A stretch of 64,000 bases of DNA from an uncultured Gammaproteobacteria bacterium (GTDB taxonomy: Bacteria > Pseudomonadota > Gammaproteobacteria > JASBUN01), in NCBI GenBank assembly GCA_963773585.1, contig CAVZBR010000004.1, positions 429,941 through 493,940 of the forward strand, written 5' to 3'. The translations under genes were made by a program, and so were the position numbers. This document shows positions 52,602 to 63,922 of this stretch, one piece after another. A model generated the notes under the pieces. It was not told the origin of the DNA. It did no database searches and saw nothing but the letters and a program-made list of their open reading frames with translations. Position 1 is the stretch's first letter, and every line of letters begins with the position of its first letter.

Positions 52602-55600
52602 CTAAATTCGGTCCGCCCGATCCAACAGCGTAAATAACTCATCCACAATCGCGGTGACACGGTCCAGGTCATCGTTCTCGGCAAAGATGGCGAAGGTGAC
52701 CTGCTTGCGCAGTTCGCGCAACGCATTCTCGCTGCGCTTCCAGTTGGGAAAATCCGCGAAAGCATGGCGAATCTTTCGGCTGACCGCCTCCGCATTCTGA
52801 ATCTTCGCATCCAGCAAACTGCGATAGACGAAATACGTCAACCCATCGAACGACTTCTCCGCCTGTTCCTTTTTGCGAGCCTCGTTCGTTGCCACTTCCT
52901 TGAGTAACGCCTCCAGCGCCTCGGCGGTGCTGACCTGGCGGCCTTCGAAGGTTTCCTGCACGGCGCGTGCCCGCTCGGCCATGGCAATCAGGTACGGATC
53001 ATCGCTTTGCTCGTCCGCCAGCTTCTCGATGCTTTTTACTAGGTTGATCACTTTGGTGCCATCGCCGCCCTGCTTGTTCTTGATCAACTCGATGGTGTCG
53101 GCGTTGATCTCAACTAGCTCGCCCACTTGGGAGACCCCATAGCTGCCCACCTGATCCTGGACGAGCTGGTTAGTCTTTCGCTGGAAATCGCGGTCTACGT
53201 ACACCCGTTTTGCATAGGCGTTGCGAACAACGTGATAGATCGATGACAGTGTCCCATAGTCCTGGATGAACGGGCGCAGGAATGCGTCCGGCGAGATGAT
53301 CTCGTAGAGCATCTCGATTTCCTTGTACTCCTTGAAGAATTCCTTGCGTCGCCCGGGATCGCGGAAATGTTCGATGAGCGTCTCCACGTCCTTGTCGTTG
53401 AAATTGCGCTCGATCAGGCCAAGATATTCCGGCGCCTTGGATTCCATCTTGTTCTTGAACAGCACCTTCAGGAGCTTGAGATCCTTGACGATGGCGTTGA
53501 TCTCATCGCTGTCGAACGCCAGCGCCTTTTCCAGCTTGTCGAAAATGCCGACGAAATCGAGCACGAAGCCGTGGGGCTTCACCATCTCCTGCGCCTCGTT
53601 TTCGTAGGGACGGTTCACACGCGCAATGGCCTGCAGTAACGTGTGGTCGCGCATGGGCTTGTCCAGATACATGGCATAGAGCACGGGCGCATCGAAACCC
53701 GTAAGCAGCTTTTCGGTCACGATCAGAACCTTCGGCTTCTCTTCGAGCTTGCCGAAGCTCTTACGGATCTGCCTTTCTTTCTTGGGATCGAGATGGAATT
53801 CCTTCAATAGCGCCGAGTCGTTATTACTGCCGGTATACACCACCTCGGAATACTCCGGCGGAAGAAATTCGTCGAGCGCGTGCTTGTACCGGGCACACGC
53901 TTCGCGGTCCACCCCAACAAGGAATGCCTTGTAACCGAGTGGCTCGACATTCTGGCGGTAATGTTCGGCGACGAACTGCGCGACCTTTCGGATACGCTCT
54001 TCGCCCTTGAGAAAGTTCTTCAGGTTCACCGCCCGCTCGAGGATCTTGTTCAACTCCTCGATGTCGGCCACGCCCTCTGCTTCGGCCAGCGAAAGAAACT
54101 CCTTGTCGAGTGTTTCGTGCGGCACCAGCATCTCGTTGGGCGCGAGCTGATAGTAAAGCGGCAACGTGGTGCCGTCCTCGATGCTGTCGGCGATGGAATA
54201 CTTATGTAGGTAGCCCTGATCGTCCTCGCAGCCGAACGTTTTGAAGGTGCCCTTGCCGTAAACCGTCTTGTCCACCGGGGTCCCGGTGAAACCGAGGAAG
54301 GTCGCGTTCGGCAGACCGGCCATGAGGAAGTTACCCAGATCACCGCCGGTGGTGCGGTGTGCTTCGTCGATGAGCACGTAGATATTCGAGCGCGTATTGA
54401 GGTCCGCCGGCATGTCGCGGAACTTGTGGATCATCGTCACGATGATGCCCCGGTAGTCGTCCTTCAGCAGCTTGTTGAGTCGGGCGATGCTGCTGGCATG
54501 CTCCAGATTGCCCAGGCCGAGCGCGGCCAGGTTCTTGAGCATCTGGTCTTCCAGCTCGTTGCGGTCGATCATCAGTAGGATGGTTGGCTTCTCGGCTTCC
54601 TGTGCGCGGAACAGTCGTTCAGCCGCCTTGATCATGGTGTAGGTCTTGCCGCTGCCCTGGGTGTGCCAGACCAGCCCGCGGGTACGCTTGGGATCGAGCG
54701 CGCGGCCGACGGTCGCCTCCACCGCGCCGGTCTGGTGCTGGCGCAGGACGTACTTGTGCAGCTCCTCGTCCTTTTCGGCAAAGACGATGTAGTCCTTGAG
54801 AAACGACAGGATGTTCGGAATCGAACAGAACGACTTCACCTTCTGTTCCAGACGACCGGGGATATCTTTAACCGCAGATGACGCAGATTGACGCAGATTG
54901 CCTTCCGAAGTGGTTTCATCTGCGCCCATCTGCGCAATCTGCGGTTTCAAAATCTTCCAGTTGAAAATGTTTCGCCGCACCGTATTCCAGCTCACTCCGT
55001 AGGAAAAGCCGATGGCGTCGGTGGCGGAGAAAAGCTGCTGCGACACGAACAGCTCGGGCGTCTCGCGGTGGTAACGGCGGATCTGGTCCACCCCTAGCGC
55101 TATCGCCTCGTCCTTGTTGGCGTTCTTGCACTCGATCACCAGCACCGGGATGCCGTTGATGAGAAAGACCACATCCTCCCGCGTGCCGTAGTGGCCGTTG
55201 TGAAAGGCCCACTCCTCGGTGACCTCGTAGACGTTTTTCGACGGATCGTCGTAATCGATCAGGATCAGGTCGCGCTCGCGGTTCTCCTCGTGATCGAAGA
55301 ACGTGCCCCGGTTGCGCAGTTGATCGACAAAATCGCGGTTGCCGTAGATGTCGGTGTGGAGATGGCGGAACTGGCCGAGCAAGGCGCCCTCGGCCTCTGC
55401 GTAGCGCGGATTGAACTCCCGCACCTTGGCGTCGAGCAGGTCGTCGAAGAACAGCGAGCGGTTTTTGGCGCGCTCGGCGGGTGGCGACCTCGGGATCGAA
55501 CCCGCGCCGCTGCTCGGCTTCCTCGCGGGGCACAAACGTCCAACCGATGGCCTCGGCGTATGCGAGGATGCGGGCTTGGACGGTTTTGCGCTCGCCTGGC

Positions 55601-55605
55601 TTCAT
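52602..55605 (-). CDS. hsdR: Type I restriction subunit HsdR; +1 frameshift near 55486
   Basis: D..INGIP..IECK nuclease motif, HTQGSGKT, DEAHR, GFTGTP, LLTGFDAP, QAIARVNR; N-terminus MKPGERKTVQARIL in an adjacent frame. Confidence 0.92.
54870..54946. repeat. 77-bp palindromic MITE-like insert in frame within hsdR
   Basis: Arms AACCGCAGATGACGCAGATTGACGCAGAT and ATCTGCGCCCATCTGCGCAATCTGCGGTT (25 of 29 complementary) with a 19-nt spacer. Confidence 0.85.
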
Positions 55606-56911
55606 GAATAGGATTTCAGATTCAAGGTGCGCTGAATTTGTTCGCGCACGACATCAGGCACGCCCGCCTTTTCTGCAAACGATCTCCATTTCGATACCGT
55701 CGCCTGCACTTCGGCAACGATCTTCGCAGCGCGCCCCCGTTTCATCGAAGCAGTCTTTGCGCAGGCGTTGAAGTCCTCCATCGTGAAATTGTCGCGTTTT
55801 CCGTTCATCGTCATCTGATGGCTTGCCGTCCACGCACCCGCGGGATTAAAGCTGTAGGTCATATCAAAGGCCGGCGACAGCGACCACTCACCGGATTTAT
55901 TCATCAGGAAGGCAATATTCTTCACGTGGTCATCCTGATTGCGCGCCACGATGTTAAATACCATGCGCCGAAACAGTTGCTCGATGGCCTGCATCGGCAA
56001 CTGCAGTTGCCGCATCACCAGCAACGCCTGCTCGTAGCTATAAGCGCCTGCCATATTGAAATCGTAGTGCGCCAGGGCGCAGAGTGACTGCATGTGAAGT
56101 TTTTCGCCGGCAGCAAGACGATCAAAGCGGCGCGTCATGAAATGCGACCGACCATTCTCTTTAAACAGCCGGCATTCGCTGATTTCAATGCCGCATTCAA
56201 GCGCCATCAGGTAATACGCATACTCGATCACCCCGTAGCCTTTTGGGTCTTCCAGTTCCTTGTCCTTGTTGCCACTAACGCCGTCAAATTTCAGCAGCCA
56301 GTATTCAAATCCCTTGCCGGCTTTGACCTGGCCCGACCGCACTTCATTGGTTTTCGGGTTCCATGCGATGACCGCCTTCGCCCTGCGCGCCACCGGCGGA
56401 TGTGCCCACGCGCAGAATATCCCTTAGCGCATCCTCTCTGCCTTCATCCGCAAAAGACGCCTGCAGGTTATTCCGGTGGGTCAATATCTCCGATGCAAGC
56501 TCAACCAACTTGCCGACCTCAATGTGTGTTGATCTGCTTTGCCCTGGGGCCGATGGCGGGGGCAAATTCCAGCGCACCCATGCCGCGTTCACCGGTATAG
56601 CAAAGCCGCTCAACCGCGTTGAAGGAACCCGGTTGCCGCCCCTGCGATGCCAGCCAGGCATCGATCAGCGCGTTGCCAAATTTGTCGGGCAGCGAGTCGG
56701 CCAGCAGGCCGGGCAGCCCGAGAAAAGTCGGGCGAGAAAGCTCGGGGAAGCGGTACACGCGCCGGGAAAGCGGCATCACAATCGGCGCGACTTGAATACC
56801 GCTTTGCGCGAATTCGGCATCGTATTCAAAGCTGGCGACTTCCTCCCCATCCTGTAGTGAGACAGCGCCGATGGTTTTGCCCCACAGCCTGACTTCGGCA
56901 AGCGTGCTCAT
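55602..56911 (-). CDS. hipA: HipA-family Ser/Thr kinase toxin; two +1 frameshifts (near 56532 and 56386)
   Basis: DSLPDKFG, GMGALEF, SAGGA then RAKA, WLLKFD, RFDR, NQDDHVKN, LSPAFD spread over three frames. Confidence 0.88.
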
Positions 56912-57258
56912 GGCTTCTCATCCCAGCGCCATGGTTTGCCAGTCGCCTTTGCGGCACGTCGACCCGAAGCCCGTTGTCGGACCTTGCCTTTTCGCTTTAA
57001 CAAATCCATCGGTCTGGGCCCGGACTCCGGAATCAGGCTATCCAGCCCTGATGCGGCGTCCAGCACCCGCAGCACACGAACCAGGGTGGCCAACTGTGAC
57101 GTTTGCCCTGCCTCCATACGCTCAAGGGTGCGCTTGGCGATACCCGCCTGTTCGGCCACAGCCGCCTGGGTCAGCTGCAATTCAACCCGGCGACCGGCAA
57201 TCCGTGCGCCCAATTCGGCCAGCACGGCATCATCTGTGAGTAAGCCAGTGATTTTCAT
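56908..57258 (-). CDS. XRE/HipB-like HTH antitoxin
   Basis: LTQAAVAEQAGIAKRTLERMEAG; ATGA overlap with hipA. Confidence 0.85.
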   Translation of the reverse strand: MKITGLLTDDAVLAELGARIAGRRVELQLTQAAVAEQAGIAKRTLERMEAGQTSQLATLVRVLRVLDAASGLDSLIPESGPRPMDLLKRKGKVRQRASGRRAAKATGKPWRWDEKP

Positions 57259-57526: not shown

Positions 57527-58180
57527 TCATGCGTCTCGAACAGGAAAACCGTCAAGGTAGAGGCCGCCCCGACGGCCAGACTCACCTGGCGGGCGGTCCG
57601 CCCGGTTGCCGAGCCGTGCGAACAGCTCCGGCATTTCGCGGTGGTACCGGCGGATCTGGTCTACCCCGAGGGCAATCGCCTCGCCGTTGTTGGCGTTCTT
57701 GCACTCGATCACCAGTACCGGGATGCCGTTGATGAGAAAAACCACATCCTCCCGTGTGCCGTAGTGACCGTTGTGAAAGGCCCACTCCTCGGTAACTTCG
57801 TAAATGTTATTCGACGAATTGTTGTAATCAATCAGGATCAGGTCGCGCTCGCGGTTGTCCTCATGATCGAAGAACGTGCCCCGGTTGCGCAGTTGCTCGA
57901 CGAAGTCCCGGTTGCCGTAGATGTCGGTGTGGAGATGGCGGAACTGCCCGAGCAAGGCGCCCTCGGCTTCTGCGTAACGCGGATTGAACTCCCGCACCTT
58001 GGCGTCGAGCAGGTCATCGAAGAACAGCGAGCGGTTCTTGGCGCGCTCGGCGGGCGGGACCTCGGGATCGAAGCCGCGCCGCTGCTCGGCTTCCTCGCGG
58101 GACACAAACGTCCAACCGATGGCCTCGGCATATTCGAGGATGCGGGCTTGGACGGTTTTGTGTTCTCCGGGTGTGGGCAT
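57527..58180 (-). pseudogene. hsdR: Truncated second copy of the hsdR 5' end
   Basis: 57619-58172 closely matches 55046-55600; homology stops after PELF. Confidence 0.9.
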
Positions 58181-58186
58181 GGATGC

Positions 58187-60188
58187 CTAGTGCTTCCATT
58201 TGGTGACAACTTGATTCACCGCATCGATCAGCTTACGGAATGAAGCGACTGTGTCCTTGTCGACAGCGGTAAGATCGCTCTTGCCGAGTTCCGTCATGAT
58301 TCGCTTTGCGACTCGCCCCTTGTTGAAAGTCCCGAGTCTCGCCTTTCCAAAGGCGTCCTCGACTCGGTGAACCAACGACTTAGTTCCGGCCGTCTTCTGT
58401 TCGAGCGATAGGGTTTTCCCGGCCAACTCCTTGGAATATGCTTCCTCCACTTTCGCGATATAGTAGGTTTCGCCGAAGAGGTCCTCCAACGCGCACGGTT
58501 TCGAGCCAATGGTATCTCCAACCATGACCACGAGCTTCTCGTCCAAAATCCACTGATGAACGAGTTGTTCAAGCGCCTGCTCACCTGCGGGATCGGACTC
58601 GAGTAGCACCGCCACGTGCAATTCTTGCCCGTGAAGTATTGTGCCAACATAGGCGACCTTGCTTGCACCGCCGGCTGGCGTAACCACCAAGTCCGCATCT
58701 AGCCCGTGCTGACCGGCTTCCTCGAATAAAGTCGAGAAAGTCGTGAGAAACCAAAAATCATCAACGCCCTCCACCACAAGGTTGTATTGGCCAACGAAGA
58801 GAGACTGGCTCCATGACATCCCGAGTGCAGCTTGCAGCGTGAATCGAGCGTCTTTGTCAGCGGTTGCCCAATTGGTATGAATCTTTGTCCCTTCTTTCTG
58901 AATATCTTCTGCAACGTAGATGTTGTCCAGTCGCTTGAAGTCGATCATAAATGGCAAGTGCGTCGTATAAACAAGCTGATTTTCTTTCGCATAGGCCTTC
59001 ATCCTCTCAAGCAAGTCCCTCTGCGCTGCGGCGTGGAGATGGAGACCTGGTTCGTCCAGTAAGATTATTGCGTTGCTGAAGTTGCCCTCGGTTTCGTACA
59101 TGAAGTGCATGTCGAAGGAAAAGAACCACTGAAAACCCTTTGAGCGCTCCTCTAGCAGAACTAGTCCCTTGTCGTTTTGATCCTTCACGAATGTCATAAA
59201 ATGCTGTCCGTCAGCTTGAAACACGACCTGATATCTACGCTGAGACCATCGCTCTGCAATCAATTCTGTCAGGGTATTGCTTGCATCGTTCATATCGAGC
59301 ATTCGCTGCTCTCTATCCTCTTCATTCCCTTTTGACACCTCGTCATCCAAGTCCAAGCCGGCCATATTCATGATCATGATGATCGTTTCTTCTTCGGGCT
59401 TGAGCTTCTTCTCCTTCTTATGCTTTTGCACCTCATCCAGTTGCGCCGACCCAACAAACGTCCGGTAGTCATCCATATAGACGAAGGTTGGCATGTGTTT
59501 ATGGACATAGTCGACGACACGCAGAAGAGGCGTCGTCTCAATCTCTTCGACAACGTCATCAATTAGGGTGATGAGGGGAGTGATCGCATTCCGATCTTGT
59601 TGCTGAGGAGGTTCTGTCGGCGCTACAAACGTGGGAAGCGTTTCTCTCAAATCGCGAAGCCCCTCCACCGCACGGCCGCTTCCCCCGCCGTTTCGGACTT
59701 CTTCCAACAGAGTCGAAAATGTAACCGCAAATTGCGTCTTGAAGTGATCAGAAAATGTCTCCGGAAGATTTTCCAGCAGCTTTTGGAGAAGATCCGCAAC
59801 CCACTCCACGGCGTGCTCGGTGCTGGGATTTTTGGGTGAAAATTGATGCTTGTATCTTCCCGCGTAATTCCAGCTTACCTCGACCGCCTCAATGCCTTTG
59901 GCGGATTCATGAAGCGCAGCAATCTCTGCTTGCTCCTCTGACGAGAACGAGAATACGGCTTCAACCACGACCTTCTCAGGGCTCTTCTCTTTCCTGCGGC
60001 CGCTCGGCCATTCCCGGTCGATGTTGTATCCGGTATTGTGATAGGGATTGAGACGCAACAGCGCCTTGAGGAACGATGTTTTTCCGGATTCGTTCCGGCC
60101 TACGATCACGGCGATGTCGTCAAAGTTCACCCATCCCGAATCGGTGATGCAGCGATAGTTTTGAATTCTGCATTTTTTCGAGTTTCAT
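58187..60188 (-). CDS. OLD-like ABC ATPase-TOPRIM nuclease; +1 shift in an A6 run near 60175
   Basis: MKLEK then CRIQNYRCI.DSG, GRNESGKT, RSKGFQWFFSF, LLDEPGLHLH, TTHLPF, VVEGVDD; ATGA overlap with the hsdS stop. Confidence 0.8.
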
Positions 60189-61543
60189 ATGGCTCTTCTC
60201 TTAATTATGTTGGAGTCCATGGCAACGGAGGGTAAATCAAGTTCGTGAACGCGGGTCTTCGCAGTCATCAACTCGTGAAGGAGGGTGCGGAACAGGTTTT
60301 GTAGCGTATTCCGTTTCGAAGTCGCCAGATTGTGCTTCGAGTCGATCAATTCGAGATGTGCGACAATCTCGTCTTGCTGCTCCATCGGCGGGAGAGGTAT
60401 CCGAGTATTTTTCACTGCTCCCACATTGAAATGCTGCTGGGCTAGCCCAATCTTCCCCGCCTGAACTTGAACTTTGGCGGCGTCTGAGTTGAAGAATCGG
60501 CTCAGGTAATGGCTGCGCAGTTTCGCCCTATTGGGCCGGACGAAAATCAAATCTATGCAGTTGCTGCCGTCGAACTCCGGCGGAACGACGCACGAGGTTC
60601 CAGGGTAGCCGGTCCGCACAATCAGAACATCTCCCGCCGACAACTTTGATTTCTTTACCGGGCCGTTGTTCGCCTCTTCGGATATATAAACCATCGGCTC
60701 AGGCTGAATCCGATCTTCCCTGACGTTCTGTGAACGAAACGCAGGAACGCCATCGGCCACGTAGTAGCTGGATGGCTTCACAACGATCCCGACGCTGATC
60801 GAATCGCATACATCCTCGCACCGCACCACCTCCCAGCTTTCGGGGACGGGGCCGATTGCGGTTTGTTTTTGTGGTTCGTTGCGGAGGCCTTCGGTGAAGA
60901 GCTTGTGCATGATGGCCTTTTTCAGCTCGGTGGTGCTCTGGATGATCCGCTCCTGCGCTTCGATCGCCCGCTGTACCGTCGAAAGGATATGCGCGATCTT
61001 CTTCTGCTCGGGGAGTGGGGGGAGCGGGATCAAGCGGTCACCAAGAACCGTTTTGCGTAACCGCTGCCGTCCTGTGCTTCCTTCCATCTTGCCTGCAAGG
61101 TCGGAGCGCACTTCCGGGTGCAAGAGATAGAAGAACAGGAACAGCGTGTCCGATTCTTCTTTCCGGCCACGTATGGGGATAACCTCGGTCGTGGCATAGG
61201 CGAAATCGCTCTCGATATCGACGATGGCCTGTTTGCCGTTCTCGAATGAGGGCGTGATCTTCGCGACCATGAGGTCGCCGTTTTCGACGTAGGTGCCGCT
61301 TCCGAGCTGGGCCAAGGGCTTTGGCGTGAATACAGACACGTGAATACGACCCAACGGAATTTGATCCATTGGGAAGAACGGGATTTCGTCGCCATTCTTC
61401 GAAAGGTCGAGACCACGAGGCTTACCAGTAAAGTCAAACGACTCGGCGATCGGACCGAGCTTCCAATCGGAAGGAAATTGGAACTGTTCGATCTTCATAC
61501 CCCAATCTTCTCCTGAATCTCCTTTAACACCGTAACTGAACAT
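60185..61543 (-). CDS. hsdS: Type I R-M specificity subunit (start may be 61498)
   Basis: Two TRDs; IPLPPLPEQKKIA and IPLPPMEQQDEIV; GPVPESW linker. Confidence 0.92.
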   Translation of the reverse strand: MFSYGVKGDSGEDWGMKIEQFQFPSDWKLGPIAESFDFTGKPRGLDLSKNGDEIPFFPMDQIPLGRIHVSVFTPKPLAQLGSGTYVENGDLMVAKITPSFENGKQAIVDIESDFAYATTEVIPIRGRKEESDTLFLFFYLLHPEVRSDLAGKMEGSTGRQRLRKTVLGDRLIPLPPLPEQKKIAHILSTVQRAIEAQERIIQSTTELKKAIMHKLFTEGLRNEPQKQTAIGPVPESWEVVRCEDVCDSISVGIVVKPSSYYVADGVPAFRSQNVREDRIQPEPMVYISEEANNGPVKKSKLSAGDVLIVRTGYPGTSCVVPPEFDGSNCIDLIFVRPNRAKLRSHYLSRFFNSDAAKVQVQAGKIGLAQQHFNVGAVKNTRIPLPPMEQQDEIVAHLELIDSKHNLATSKRNTLQNLFRTLLHELMTAKTRVHELDLPSVAMDSNIIKRRAI

Positions 61544-61553
61544 AACTCAGCAA

Positions 61554-61859
61554 TCATCCTCCGCTCCTTTCTCCACCTGCAATCTGTTCCAGTTTCTGCA
61601 AATCCTCTGCATCGGCCTGCCGGGCCATGGTCCTGTAGCGCTTGCCGTCTGCGGCAGTTGTCAAGGAATCCCTGACAACTGAATCATCGATCAACTCCCC
61701 GTCTTTAAAGATATTTTTGGCGTGGAGGCTGACGTTCTGCTTGGTGGTCTGGAAGAGTTCGGCGATTTCAAGCTGGGTGAGCCAGACGGTCTGGCCATCG
61801 ACGCGGAGATCGAGCCGGGTGCGGCCGTCGTCTGAGGTGTAAAGAATCAGTTCGCTCAC
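61554..61859 (-). CDS. RhuM-like protein with a large in-frame internal deletion
   Basis: TVWLTQLEIAELFQTTKQNVSLH..NIF..GEL..TAADGKRY joined directly to a short tail; 101 aa. Confidence 0.7.
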   Translation of the reverse strand: MSELILYTSDDGRTRLDLRVDGQTVWLTQLEIAELFQTTKQNVSLHAKNIFKDGELIDDSVVRDSLTTAADGKRYRTMARQADAEDLQKLEQIAGGERSGG

Positions 61860-62296
61860 GCTTCGCCTCTTGATTGAAGGTTAACCGCAGATGGCGCAGA
61901 TTTGCGCAGATGGCTCACTGACTGGATGAAGCGTTTGTAGTCGAGACGCAGCGTGGCGAAATTGATCAGGAGGGCGCGCTCGAAACCGGTGGCTTTGAGG
62001 TAGTGGAGTGCTTGGGCGGATTCGATATCGGTGAGAGTCCTAACCGCCTTGGGTTCGACGATAATTGAGCCATAGCAGACGAAATCCGCGCGGTAAGGCG
62101 TGCCCAAAGTGCATCCCTTGTAGAGAACGGGGATCGAGTGCTCGCGAGTGAATGGAATGTCACGGTGGGCAAATTCGATCTCCAGGGCATCCTGATACAC
62201 CCCTTCCAGAAAGCCATTTCCCAGCTCCCTATGCACCTCCATGGCCGCGCCAATAATGGCGTACGTTTCCGGGTCTCTCTGTGAATCTGCGTTCAT
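61856..62296 (-). CDS. GxxExxY protein (PD-(D/E)XK-like nuclease family)
   Basis: IIGAAMEVHRELGNGFLEGVYQDAL, YRADF..IIVEPKA, YLKATG..LLINF. Confidence 0.9.
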   Translation of the reverse strand: MNADSQRDPETYAIIGAAMEVHRELGNGFLEGVYQDALEIEFAHRDIPFTREHSIPVLYKGCTLGTPYRADFVCYGSIIVEPKAVRTLTDIESAQALHYLKATGFERALLINFATLRLDYKRFIQSVSHLRKSAPSAVNLQSRGEA

Positions 62297-62313
62297 CTGC
62301 GCCAGATGCGGTT
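61883..62313. mobile_element. Candidate element: GxxExxY ORF between 29-nt inverted CGCAGAT-triplet arms
   Basis: Arms at 61883-61911 and 62285-62313 share the architecture of 54870-54946. Confidence 0.6.
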
Positions 62314-63922
62314 ACACTCCGATCTTCTTGAGGATGTCCCGGAGCGCCTTGTCCGTCTCCCGCGCCTCGGCTTCTACGGCCCTCAGTTCCTCGACGATCT
62401 CCGCAATCGGCCGATAGGTTTCGGCATCTGAGGTATGGATGTAGCGGCTGGGGGAGATGTTGTAGTCGTTCTTCTTCAGCTCAGCGTGATCGACGATGCG
62501 GCTGAGTTTTTCCTCTTCCTTCCAGCCGATGAGGGTGTCGGCGATGCGCTGGATACCCGCGCCGGGGATGAAGTTCTTGGGGTCGCCCTTTTCAAAGACC
62601 TGGCTGGCGTTGACGAGGAAGACCTTGCCCTTGCGCTCCTTCCGCTTGGCCTTGTTCAGGAACAGCACGATGCCCGGGGCGGTGGTGTTGTAGAAGAGGT
62701 TTTCCGGCAGGTAGAGGACGCTCTCGATCAGGTCGTGGTCGACGAACCACTGGCGGACGGTCTTTTCCTTGTTGGTGCCGGCATTGCCCGAGCCGCGGGA
62801 GGCGGCGCCGGTGTCGAGGACGACGGCAGCGCGGCCTTTGTCATTGAGGCTGGCGTGCATATGCTGGACCCAGCCCCAGTCGGCGGAGGCTTTGCCGGGG
62901 AAGCCCGCGCCGGCGGGGAAGCGGTCGAGTTCGTCGTTGTCGTAGTCGGCCTCGGTGAACCAGTCCTGGTTCCACATGGGATTGGCGACGACGCGGTCAA
63001 AGGTGCGGAGTTTGCCCTGCTTGTTGCGGAATTTGGGATTTTTGAAGGTGTCGCCGATCTCGATCTCGCCTTCCATGTCGTGGATGATCATGTTCATGTT
63101 GGCCATGGCCCAGGTGTCGGCGGTGTATTCCTGGCCGTAGAGCTTGAGCGGGGCGACGGTGCGCTTCTTGCCTTTGGCCGCCTCTTCCATTGCGATCTCG
63201 CATTTGATGAGCAGGCCGCCGGAGCCGCAGGTGGGGTCGTAAATCTCCATGCCGGGCTCCGGCTGGAGCACCTTCGACATGATGGTGCCGACTTCCGGTG
63301 GCGTGTAGAACTCGCCGGCGCTCTGGCCGCCGCCCTCGGCGAACTTGCGGATGAGGTATTCGTAGCTCTTGCCGATGATGTCGGCTTCGACGTCCTCGAG
63401 TCCGAGGCGTTTGGTGCTGATCGCTTCGATCAGGTTGGAAAGTCGGTCGTCGTCGATATCCCGCTGACCGTGGGTGGTGGCGTTGAAGTCGACGCGGTCG
63501 ATGATGCCCTGTAAACGGGGGTTTTGCTTTGCGATGGCGCGCATGTGGGTGGTGACGCCTTCGCCGATCTTGTCGGAGAGTTTGCGGATGATGGACCAGA
63601 CCGATTCTTCCGGGTCTTCCGGCAGCAGGGGGAGATAGAAGCGCACCAGCTTGTGATCGGCCTTGACGAACTGGAAGGCCTTTTTGCGCGAGCCGACTTC
63701 GGCCGCGATGCGGTTAACCTCGTCATCGAAGACATCGCACAGCCGCTTGGTAAAGATCAACGGCAGGATGTAATCCTTGTACTTCGGTGCATCTTTGGCA
63801 CCACGGATGGAGCAGGCCGCATCCCAGATCCAGGATTCGAGCGATTTTCCGTTGGTGCGTTCGATGCCGTTGGCAGCGGTTTTCCTGGTCGATTTTTTCT
63901 TTTTGGCGGCCACTTCTCTCAT
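62312..63922 (-). CDS. hsdM: Type I R-M N6-adenine methyltransferase
   Basis: GEFYTP, YDPTCGSGG, YGQE, VANPMW, LPENLFYNT. Confidence 0.93.
   Translation of the reverse strand: MREVAAKKKKSTRKTAANGIERTNGKSLESWIWDAACSIRGAKDAPKYKDYILPLIFTKRLCDVFDDEVNRIAAEVGSRKKAFQFVKADHKLVRFYLPLLPEDPEESVWSIIRKLSDKIGEGVTTHMRAIAKQNPRLQGIIDRVDFNATTHGQRDIDDDRLSNLIEAISTKRLGLEDVEADIIGKSYEYLIRKFAEGGGQSAGEFYTPPEVGTIMSKVLQPEPGMEIYDPTCGSGGLLIKCEIAMEEAAKGKKRTVAPLKLYGQEYTADTWAMANMNMIIHDMEGEIEIGDTFKNPKFRNKQGKLRTFDRVVANPMWNQDWFTEADYDNDELDRFPAGAGFPGKASADWGWVQHMHASLNDKGRAAVVLDTGAASRGSGNAGTNKEKTVRQWFVDHDLIESVLYLPENLFYNTTAPGIVLFLNKAKRKERKGKVFLVNASQVFEKGDPKNFIPGAGIQRIADTLIGWKEEEKLSRIVDHAELKKNDYNISPSRYIHTSDAETYRPIAEIVEELRAVEAEARETDKALRDILKKIGV

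Follow-up and report, generated by a model that had tools for sequence, protein, structure and literature searches.

Miniature inverted-repeat transposable elements (MITEs) and Rickettsia palindromic elements are short inverted-repeat insertions that are not known to have a linked PD-(D/E)XK gene or arms of three phased heptamers, and the insertion sequences (IS) of the IS200/IS605 group, which make no target duplication and have hairpin-dependent ends, carry separate subterminal hairpins and encode the Y1 transposase TnpA with or without TnpB. Free-standing homing endonuclease genes, which are intergenic nuclease genes of phages and bacteria, are not known to have periodic inverted arms or gene-less hairpin derivatives. 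In the REPIN/RAYT system, as described in excerpts of two papers, doublets of repetitive extragenic palindromic (REP) sequence go together with a REP-associated tyrosine transposase (PMC3337134, PMC3116915). Geobacter metallireducens, according to an excerpt of a third paper, has multicopy, hairpin-like and mostly paired elements with tandem heptanucleotide repeats (consensus MTYCTGA and GGACCGG), which lie between and within genes, are termed "global regulator binding sites" and were proposed to be IHF/HU sites or regulatory RNAs (PMC2700814). Here, we analyze a window (the whole stretch of DNA under study) of 64,000 nt from contig CAVZBR010000004.1 of assembly GCA_963773585.1, an uncultured Gammaproteobacteria bacterium (JASBUN01), in which a GxxExxY nuclease gene is enclosed by two inverted arms made of phased heptamers; the gene and its arms together are referred to as the cassette.

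The GxxExxY (PDDEXK_3) family is large, occurs in many phyla and often has several copies per genome, and we found no function for it in print; the part of one paper that was consulted gives its function as unknown (PMC3424549) and a portion of another mentions the family in passing (PMC8934634). Our literature search, whose coverage did not include subscription journals, found no published link of GxxExxY, PDDEXK_3 or PF13366 to flanking repeats, and a text search of the same coverage matched the arm sequence strings to no papers. The original prediction for this locus held that the gene and its arms form an undescribed, autonomous selfish element that inserts at gene junctions. Our results suggest that the window copy probably belongs to a family of selfish cassettes that insert at the DNA level, each composed of a GxxExxY nuclease gene and inverted phased-heptamer arms, and that the cassette is apparently a widespread kind of mobile DNA that has gone undescribed.

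The cassette and its insertion site

The arm on the 5' side of the GxxExxY gene lies at 62285-62313 and the arm on its 3' side at 61883-61911, with 373 nt between the two 29-nt arms. Read from the outer end inward, each arm consists of AAC and then three heptamers with 2- and 3-nt spacers, i.e., at 9- and 10-nt spacing. The 3'-side arm has three CGCAGAT units on the plus strand and encodes HLRKSAPSAV; of the three units of the 5'-side arm, the outer one is degenerate (CGCATCT on the gene strand), and this arm contains the ATG of the gene (62294-62296) and two bases of the stop codon of the upstream gene, hsdM, whose TAA overlaps its outer end. Re-reading of the sequence thus bore out what the original prediction had said of the arms: their coordinates and interval, the number, spacing and AAC outer end of the heptamers, the single CGCATCT unit, and the way in which both arms are built into the gene. 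The arms are complementary at 24 of 29 positions; of the five mismatches, two fall in the right arm's degenerate outer unit and three in the 3-nt inner spacer. An inverted-repeat search of the window lengthened the pair to 40 nt at 78%. A two-unit pattern derived from the arms has four matches in the window, as compared to 0.07 expected, and none of 100 shuffles reached four; two of these matches are outside the cassette, at 54882-54934. The inverted-repeat score of the locus was 17.5 vs. a maximum of 9.0 over 30 shuffles. The arm pattern of the window exceeds chance.

Alleles without the cassette show where the inserted unit begins and ends. In a contig of sequencing run X4 (180 nt, depth 7.4), position 61858 is joined to position 62345 through 30 other letters, making this allele 456 nt shorter (net); the 30 letters encode an hsdM end (..LKKILEKIGV), after which comes a TGA that overlaps the ATG of the rhuM frame. 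None of 77 rhuM metagenome loci (80 were fetched, of which 77 had at least 120 nt upstream) had a GxxExxY gene upstream; an hsdM end of the window type meets rhuM in an ATGA overlap in L136 and L149 (both classed as abutting) and in L150 (judged by eye), and in L135 there is a 5-nt gap between the hsdM end and rhuM. By comparison with X4 and with the abutting hsdM/rhuM junctions of L136, L149, and L150, the inserted unit spans 61859-62314 on the minus strand and is 456 nt (152 codons) long, and not 431 bp as first proposed. The original context of hsdM and rhuM was correct for hsdM (62312-63922, minus strand; N6_Mtase and HsdM_N domains), the upstream host gene, while the downstream gene is only a 101-aa rhuM fragment (61554-61859, minus strand) without a Pfam or NCBIfam match.

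The unit fits closely between its neighbors. It starts with TAA on the gene strand, this being the hsdM stop codon (62312-62314), and contains a single open reading frame (ORF) (61856-62296, minus strand, 146 aa), which encodes the PF13366 protein; no DDE, serine or tyrosine transposase is encoded within the 456 nt. Past the left arm, the ORF continues for eight codons through a 24-nt tail (61859-61882, minus strand) that encodes NLQSRGEA and has a purine-rich, Shine-Dalgarno-like stretch, and it terminates on a TGA (61856-61858) overlapping the GTG of the next ORF. The last inserted base completes this GTG, which is the start codon of the rhuM fragment; in empty alleles, the final A of the last hsdM codon together with TG forms the ATG of rhuM within ATGA. 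The cassette ORF shares the frame of hsdM and ends on a TGA that is already present in empty alleles, and the window unit is placed between the last hsdM sense codon and this TGA, which in empty alleles overlaps the rhuM ATG. Since the unit brings a TAA for hsdM, a Shine-Dalgarno-like tail and a start-codon base for rhuM, both neighbors are left translatable. In relatives on other contigs, the tail is kept as xLQSGGxA followed by an ATGA or GTGA overlap, before different downstream genes.

Filled and empty sites in relatives

A Gallionellaceae relative (L038; 57% identity), whose unit is of the CGCAGAT type as in the window, carries its cassette between sdhA and sdhB. Three genomes (G337, G351, and G353) have the cassette at this site, and at least five do not, the two flanks being 11-15 nt apart in G342, G343, G347, and G350 and touching in G352. 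Alignment showed the whole cassette to be missing at sdhA/sdhB in L118, L119, and L120, and the stop codon reads TAA in all three filled alleles vs. TAG in the three aligned empty ones. At gatA/gatB, a comparison of relatives by length gave 102 nt in G380 vs. 535 in the query, and a larger insert in G379.

A third site holds arms alone. Positions 54870-54946 are a gene-less arm pair of 77 nt, with 3 + 3 intact CGCAGAT units and a 19-nt loop, in frame within hsdR; the palindrome is translated as part of the 977-aa hsdR frame. The hairpin is absent from hsdR of G002 (same genus; flanks 91-94% identical) and of G038 (another family; 75-81%), and hsdR with the hairpin is longer by exactly 84 nt net (28 codons) than in either. 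As a single strand, the solo hairpin is predicted to fold into three short helices with small internal loops (DNA parameters: -26.5 and -24.2 kcal/mol; z -7.6 and -6.4). A search of Rfam gave no family match, the solo hairpin having a sub-threshold chance match to mir-5892 (24.4 bits vs. a gathering score of 82). This second copy of the arms had escaped the original prediction. Empty alleles, the existence of which follows from the claim of a mobile element, therefore occur at hsdM/rhuM (X4, L136, L149, L150), at sdhA/sdhB and, as hairpin-free hsdR, in G002 and G038.

The whole 1401-nt stretch used to search public sequencing runs was present in none of the runs searched (best share, 0.28), and its uncovered parts were not counted as evidence. 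In run X5, and there in single contigs only, the left arm was covered at high depth, and loose ends looked like the end of an hsdM with a gene-less arm pair after it.

Arms across the GxxExxY family

To the window we added 80 relative loci (48-79% identity) from species-representative genomes of Verrucomicrobiota, Kiritimatiellota, Lentisphaerota, Planctomycetota, Chloroflexota, Bacteroidota, Pseudomonadota, Acidobacteriota, and others, giving 81 loci. Each locus was scored by matching the 110 nt that precede the conserved domain with the 110 nt that follow it and taking the best ungapped inverted match, and this arm score was compared with 30 shuffles per locus. Inverted arms beat all 30 shuffles in 59 of the 81 loci. 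The same test applied to other orientations gave 24 loci for direct, 5 for reverse-only and 6 for complement-only matches; the 24 direct-repeat loci are accounted for by extra hairpins on both sides of the gene. Homologs of the window gene are, therefore, generally arm-bearing (59 loci vs. 5 and 6), as expected under the original claim. Nearly all arms of the family are periodic at 9-10 nt, with a unit that differs by lineage: CGCAGAT/CACAGAT, CACAGAA, CACGAAT/ACGAATT, AAGATTT, CACTAAT, or ACGGATT. Many lineages have their arms beyond the limits of the ORF, and in the close subfamily the arms are translated, as the MNAD.. start and the ..HLRxSAxSAV end.

To compare units with spacers, we used 62 forward-reverse arm pairs of the C[AG]C[AG]GAT type. 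Within units, agreement between the arms was 89% in solo pairs and 93% in gene-bearing pairs, values that the detection method biases upward, and within spacers it was 40% and 44%, respectively, with spacer lengths mostly of 2 and 3 in both arms. Conservation concerns the heptamers and their phasing rather than a perfect stem. When unit type was placed on the protein tree, 21 changes were required vs. a shuffled mean of 30.4, and none of 200 shuffles was as low; since the automatic unit labels are crude (38 of 81 loci were labeled "none," many of them arm-bearing by the shuffle test), this clustering is only a rough indication. The protein tree mixes phyla, and PF13366 matches per genome ranged from one in the window's own genome (G000) to three in G337, four in G341 and eight in G339.

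The position of the window cassette within an operon is shared by many of its relatives. A same-strand ORF of at least 80 aa ends between -60 and +12 nt from the 5' arm in 38 of the 59 arm-bearing loci, one of at least 80 aa starts between -10 and +90 nt from the 3' arm in 37, and both are present in 27. Annotated neighbor pairs were hsdM/DUF4062, sdhA/sdhB, gatA/gatB, V-ATPase B/D, M16/M16 peptidases, OTCase/EngA, carbamoyltransferase/nucleotidyltransferase, and MR_MLE/amidohydrolase. These contexts, together with the geometry of the window, fit the proposal that insertion occurs at gene junctions without disrupting the operon.

Among loci on viral contigs, four of seven (L128, L129, L132, L133) beat their shuffles and three (L127, L130, L131) did not, and phages may carry cassettes between hosts. 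On the predicted viral contig of L133, the arms that flank a GxxExxY relative (~1390-1500 and 1845-1900) share the AACCGC...GCGGTT ends and have CGCGAAAAG-type units. Tandem gene-less arm pairs adjoin gene-bearing cassettes in three loci from metagenome-assembled genomes labeled Akkermansiaceae (L020, 3596-3887; L022, 948-1751; L026, 2872-3561); the loops of these tandem hairpins are ~29-49 nt, and those of L020 have a 132-nt period. L021, with 625 nt between its arms, was the one candidate for other cargo and was rejected, its interval being a second GxxExxY copy broken by a run of N; the search for cargo was unsystematic.

The GxxExxY protein

The window ORF matched PF13366 (PDDEXK_3; E 5e-38, 130.5 bits, cut-off 22), its sole Pfam match, and TIGR04256 (GxxExxY; E 9e-41, 138.8 bits, cut-off 35). 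An alignment of 67 proteins, including that of the window, shows no variation at G28, E31, and Y34 of the GxxExxY motif or at E41 and E81, with D71 and K83 retained in 66; the window protein has the PD-(D/E)XK residues D71, E81, and K83. Residue 82 is L in 55 proteins, T in six, C in three, and M, V, and P in one each, and the single P is that of the window, which confirms the earlier remark that E-P-K stands here where E-L-K is usual.

An AF2 model of the window protein (predicted local distance difference test score, pLDDT, 86.8) has two helices followed by a mixed sheet and one further helix; residues 1-5 and 131-146, the latter including the segment encoded by the 3' arm and the tail, are predicted to be disordered. 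Foldseek matched the model best to Cas4 SSO0001 (E 6e-4), ACE1, lambda exonuclease, and Hjc, with modest TM-scores of 0.34-0.54, and also to a splicing endonuclease and, weakly, to the catalytic domain of I-Bth0305I (E 0.033). The protein is therefore modeled as a generic PD-(D/E)XK fold of the restriction-endonuclease-like alpha/beta kind, pointing to no specific relative. A sequence search of the PDB returned nothing relevant, with one match to a LacI regulator at E 0.74. Protein P0002 (200 aa) opens with ~48 aa from a first GxxExxY copy, after which the arm-encoded KPQMSQMNAD marks a new start and a full copy; it looks like a cassette inserted in another cassette or like recombination at an arm.

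Arms without the gene

The 3.84-Mb assembly containing the window (G000) has two arm pairs in total, those of the cassette and of the hsdR hairpin, and one PF13366 gene. The arms thus do not form a genome-wide repeat here, and the possibility that they are such a repeat, unlinked to the gene, is contradicted. In a phylum sample of 301 genomes, the two-unit pattern had 253 matches in 85 genomes, as compared to six matches for the same pattern read backwards. PF13366 was found in 53 of the 301 genomes, being present in 11 of 20 genomes with at least three pattern matches vs. 42 of the 281 others. PF13366-free genomes with many pattern matches include G111 (20), G073 (16), and G065 (8), which have gene-less arm pairs and MITE-like hairpins; some pattern matches in PF13366-free genomes may be due to chance in GC-rich DNA. 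Since genomes lacking the gene hold arms, the arms can outlive the gene or move without it. In G337, arms also outnumber genes: the query stretch of the sdhA/sdhB search, mostly through its arms alone, found 44 matching places there, along with 30 in G353 and 26 in G351. In G111, which has no PF13366 match, L097 and L104 show a phased CACGAAA repeat with an inverted partner ~17 nt away, near hairpins of the CGCAGAT type.

Genes around the window cassette

On the minus strand, the order of genes is hsdM, cassette, rhuM fragment, hsdS, an AAA_15/AAA_21 ATPase gene, a 5' fragment of hsdR, a HipA-like module, and hsdR. The first ~77 aa of the rhuM fragment are up to 95% identical to RhuM proteins of ~333 aa. 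Directly before the hsdS ATG is a 37-nt remnant of an hsdM 3' end (61495-61531, minus strand; ..IQEKIGV and stop) that marks an older hsdM/hsdS junction, and in G002, hsdM overlaps hsdS directly. The hsdM tail of the window has diverged from ~62344 downward, and it is similar to hsdM ends found before cassettes in L017, L018, and L020. From these resemblances, the hsdM tail, cassette and rhuM probably arrived by recombination with another type I restriction-modification (R-M) locus and not as a fresh insertion. The rhuM cassettes themselves seem to enter the hsdM/hsdS overlap together with a copied hsdM end. The window copy is likely decaying, with one degenerate unit, the unique P82, and no sister copies; its ORF is intact.

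Several other features of the locus were observed. A 647-aa AAA_15/AAA_21 ATPase gene (58187-60130) between hsdS and the hsdR fragment is likely an accessory defense gene within the type I R-M island. There are two copies of the hsdR 5' end, one as a 217-aa N-terminal fragment (57527-58180) and one in the long gene (52602-55605), and G002 also holds a second match to the 5' part of hsdR. Between the two copies are genes for a helix-turn-helix protein (56908-57258), a HipA N-domain (56519-56911), and HipA_C (55602-56393), a three-gene HipA-like module that we take to resemble the split, tripartite hipBST arrangement. The long hsdR changes frame after ..GFDPEV (~codon 41, ~55480-55540), and the 977-aa ORF (52602-55535) overlaps an ATG-started ORF (54916-55605) that is in another frame. 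Either hsdR is a pseudogene here or the assembly may contain an indel.

Discussion

Alleles either have the whole GxxExxY cassette or lack all of it, and the cassette has a habit of occupying operon junctions and has gene-less derivatives. It consists of a PD-(D/E)XK gene with a core of ~120 aa and, in each arm, three heptamers at 9-10 nt, or approximately one helical turn, and we infer that the nuclease acts on these phased heptamers. In the mechanism that we propose, an oligomer of the nuclease would bind the phased heptamers of both arms and bring the arms together, would cut at or near the cassette ends or at empty targets, and could mobilize its own cassette and, in trans, gene-less hairpins in the manner of REPIN/RAYT, without target-site duplication. 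The element would then be autonomous, as the original prediction supposed, and the E-P-K motif might impair the window copy. It is conceivable, and we offer it tentatively as something short of an even chance, that GxxExxY cassettes represent a new class of autonomous mobile DNA, with a minimal nuclease as its sole protein, which reads helically phased heptamers in its own arms, moves itself and REPIN-like hairpins without target duplication, and lands precisely at stop/start junctions or in frame.

Several results weigh against reading the locus as a member of a family of insertion cassettes. No target-site duplication was seen at hsdM/rhuM, sdhA/sdhB, or hsdR, where diverged flanks could hide 1-3 nt. 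The entire sdhA/sdhB spacer differs between filled and empty alleles, which fits homologous recombination too, and the X4 evidence is a single 180-nt contig of depth 7.4, accepted at a match threshold of at least 88%. G002, tried as a clean empty site for the window cassette, had to be rejected: it is also without the rhuM fragment, with hsdM overlapping hsdS, and lacking both cassette and rhuM, it shows just an 813-bp block insertion. With one gene copy and one hairpin, the window's genome gives no sign of current activity. Among the homologs, 22 of 81 loci did not have an arm pair that exceeded the shuffles. Loci were sampled with six peptide patterns, one of which is partly arm-encoded and biases the closest loci, the distant loci having matched the sampling peptides from residue 8-10 onward only; moreover, kin share unit labels, and the tree and genome counts overstate independence. 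Lastly, nine of the 20 genomes rich in the two-unit pattern are without PF13366 (G041, G065, G073, G075, G111, G113, G182, G200, G277).

These nine genomes, among them G073 with 16 matches and G111 with 20, are what might be expected if the arms were independent REP- or MITE-like repeats moved by some other enzyme, with GxxExxY genes as mere neighbors or passengers that share, for example, the same operon junctions. So is G337, where solo hairpins far exceed genes (44 places, most of them arm-only, vs. 3 genes). A passenger, however, would not be expected to be gained and lost jointly with both arms, as the gene is at hsdM/rhuM and sdhA/sdhB, nor to be bracketed by arms whose outer-to-inner orientation is constant, as is found for 59 of 81 genes. 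In the close subfamily, furthermore, the start codon and the C-terminal peptide of the gene are built into the arms, and unit type tracks the protein tree. We consequently regard this explanation as unlikely.

The arms could also act in the polycistronic mRNA, in translation control, processing or stability, with the gene being an accessory useful to the host and spread by horizontal transfer and homologous recombination only. The element is indeed co-oriented with, and packed between, operon genes; its start codon lies within an arm; the single-stranded solo hairpin has a strong fold (z -7.6 and -6.4); and both the lack of a target-site duplication, with the whole spacer replaced at sdhA/sdhB, and the arrival of the window cassette in one block together with the 3' end of a foreign hsdM agree with such a history. 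Selection for a stem, however, does not readily account for spacers that are 40-44% complementary next to units that are 89-93% so; since the units are conserved and the spacers are not, sequence recognition is indicated rather than stem selection. The same type of cassette is found in many unrelated operons across phyla, so homologous recombination alone cannot explain its spread. Gene-less hairpins occur in tandem arrays and, in one case, in frame in a coding region, and there was no match to an Rfam family. A role confined to RNA thus seems improbable to us. That the arms have no role as DNA or RNA, being chance similarity or a by-product of conserved terminal peptides, is suggested by their translation in the close subfamily (MNAD.., ..HLRxSAxSAV) but is scarcely credible, since the arm-encoded C-terminal segment and the first five residues are predicted to be disordered, arms lie outside the ORF in many lineages, gene-less arm pairs exist, and neither shuffles nor orientation controls reproduce the signal.

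Taken alone, the window offers modest biology: the copy in its type I R-M locus is probably decaying. For the GxxExxY family as a whole, arms, joint presence and absence, and gene-less hairpins provide a testable role. If the insertion-cassette reading is correct, it would add a type of mobile element independent of any known transposase, and it would account for stray in-frame peptide insertions and odd N- and C-terminal peptides of annotated proteins and for small extra genes between housekeeping partners such as sdhA and sdhB, gatA and gatB, or V-ATPase B and D. The more tentative reading, a new class of autonomous mobile DNA, would account for the large GxxExxY paralog families and for numerous periodic-heptamer hairpins, so far without explanation, in Verrucomicrobiota, Planctomycetota, Bacteroidota, Chloroflexota, and some Proteobacteria. 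A translationally neutral element could also become a tool for insertion into operons free of polar effects.

Compared with the systems described to date, the cassette differs from classical IS elements and transposons in having no DDE, serine or tyrosine transposase and no visible target-site duplication. Unlike IS200/IS605 elements, it has ends that are inverted copies of each other, and it encodes neither the Y1 transposase TnpA nor TnpB. The hairpin at 54870-54946 is like MITEs and Rickettsia palindromic elements in that it keeps the hsdR frame (+84 nt). With free-standing homing endonuclease genes, the cassette shares a lone, small nuclease gene between conserved genes, presence/absence polymorphism, and the lack of a transposase; however, cassettes occupy many unrelated junctions rather than one cognate site. 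The heptanucleotide elements of Geobacter have a consensus unlike CGCAGAT, and the excerpt of the paper describing them states no link to a nuclease gene (PMC2700814). REPIN/RAYT, to judge from the excerpts cited above, is alike in having a small enzyme gene between inverted copies of a repeat that also occurs as gene-less doublets, single or clustered, and in making no target duplication. It differs in its enzyme, which is an HUH/Y1 (IS200-like) transposase and not a PD-(D/E)XK GxxExxY protein, and in its repeat, a REP palindrome in place of an arm of three phased heptamers. The cassette gene, finally, is set apart from REPIN/RAYT by lying inside operons, co-oriented and translationally linked with its neighbors, in many phyla and in several copies in some genomes (eight in G339).

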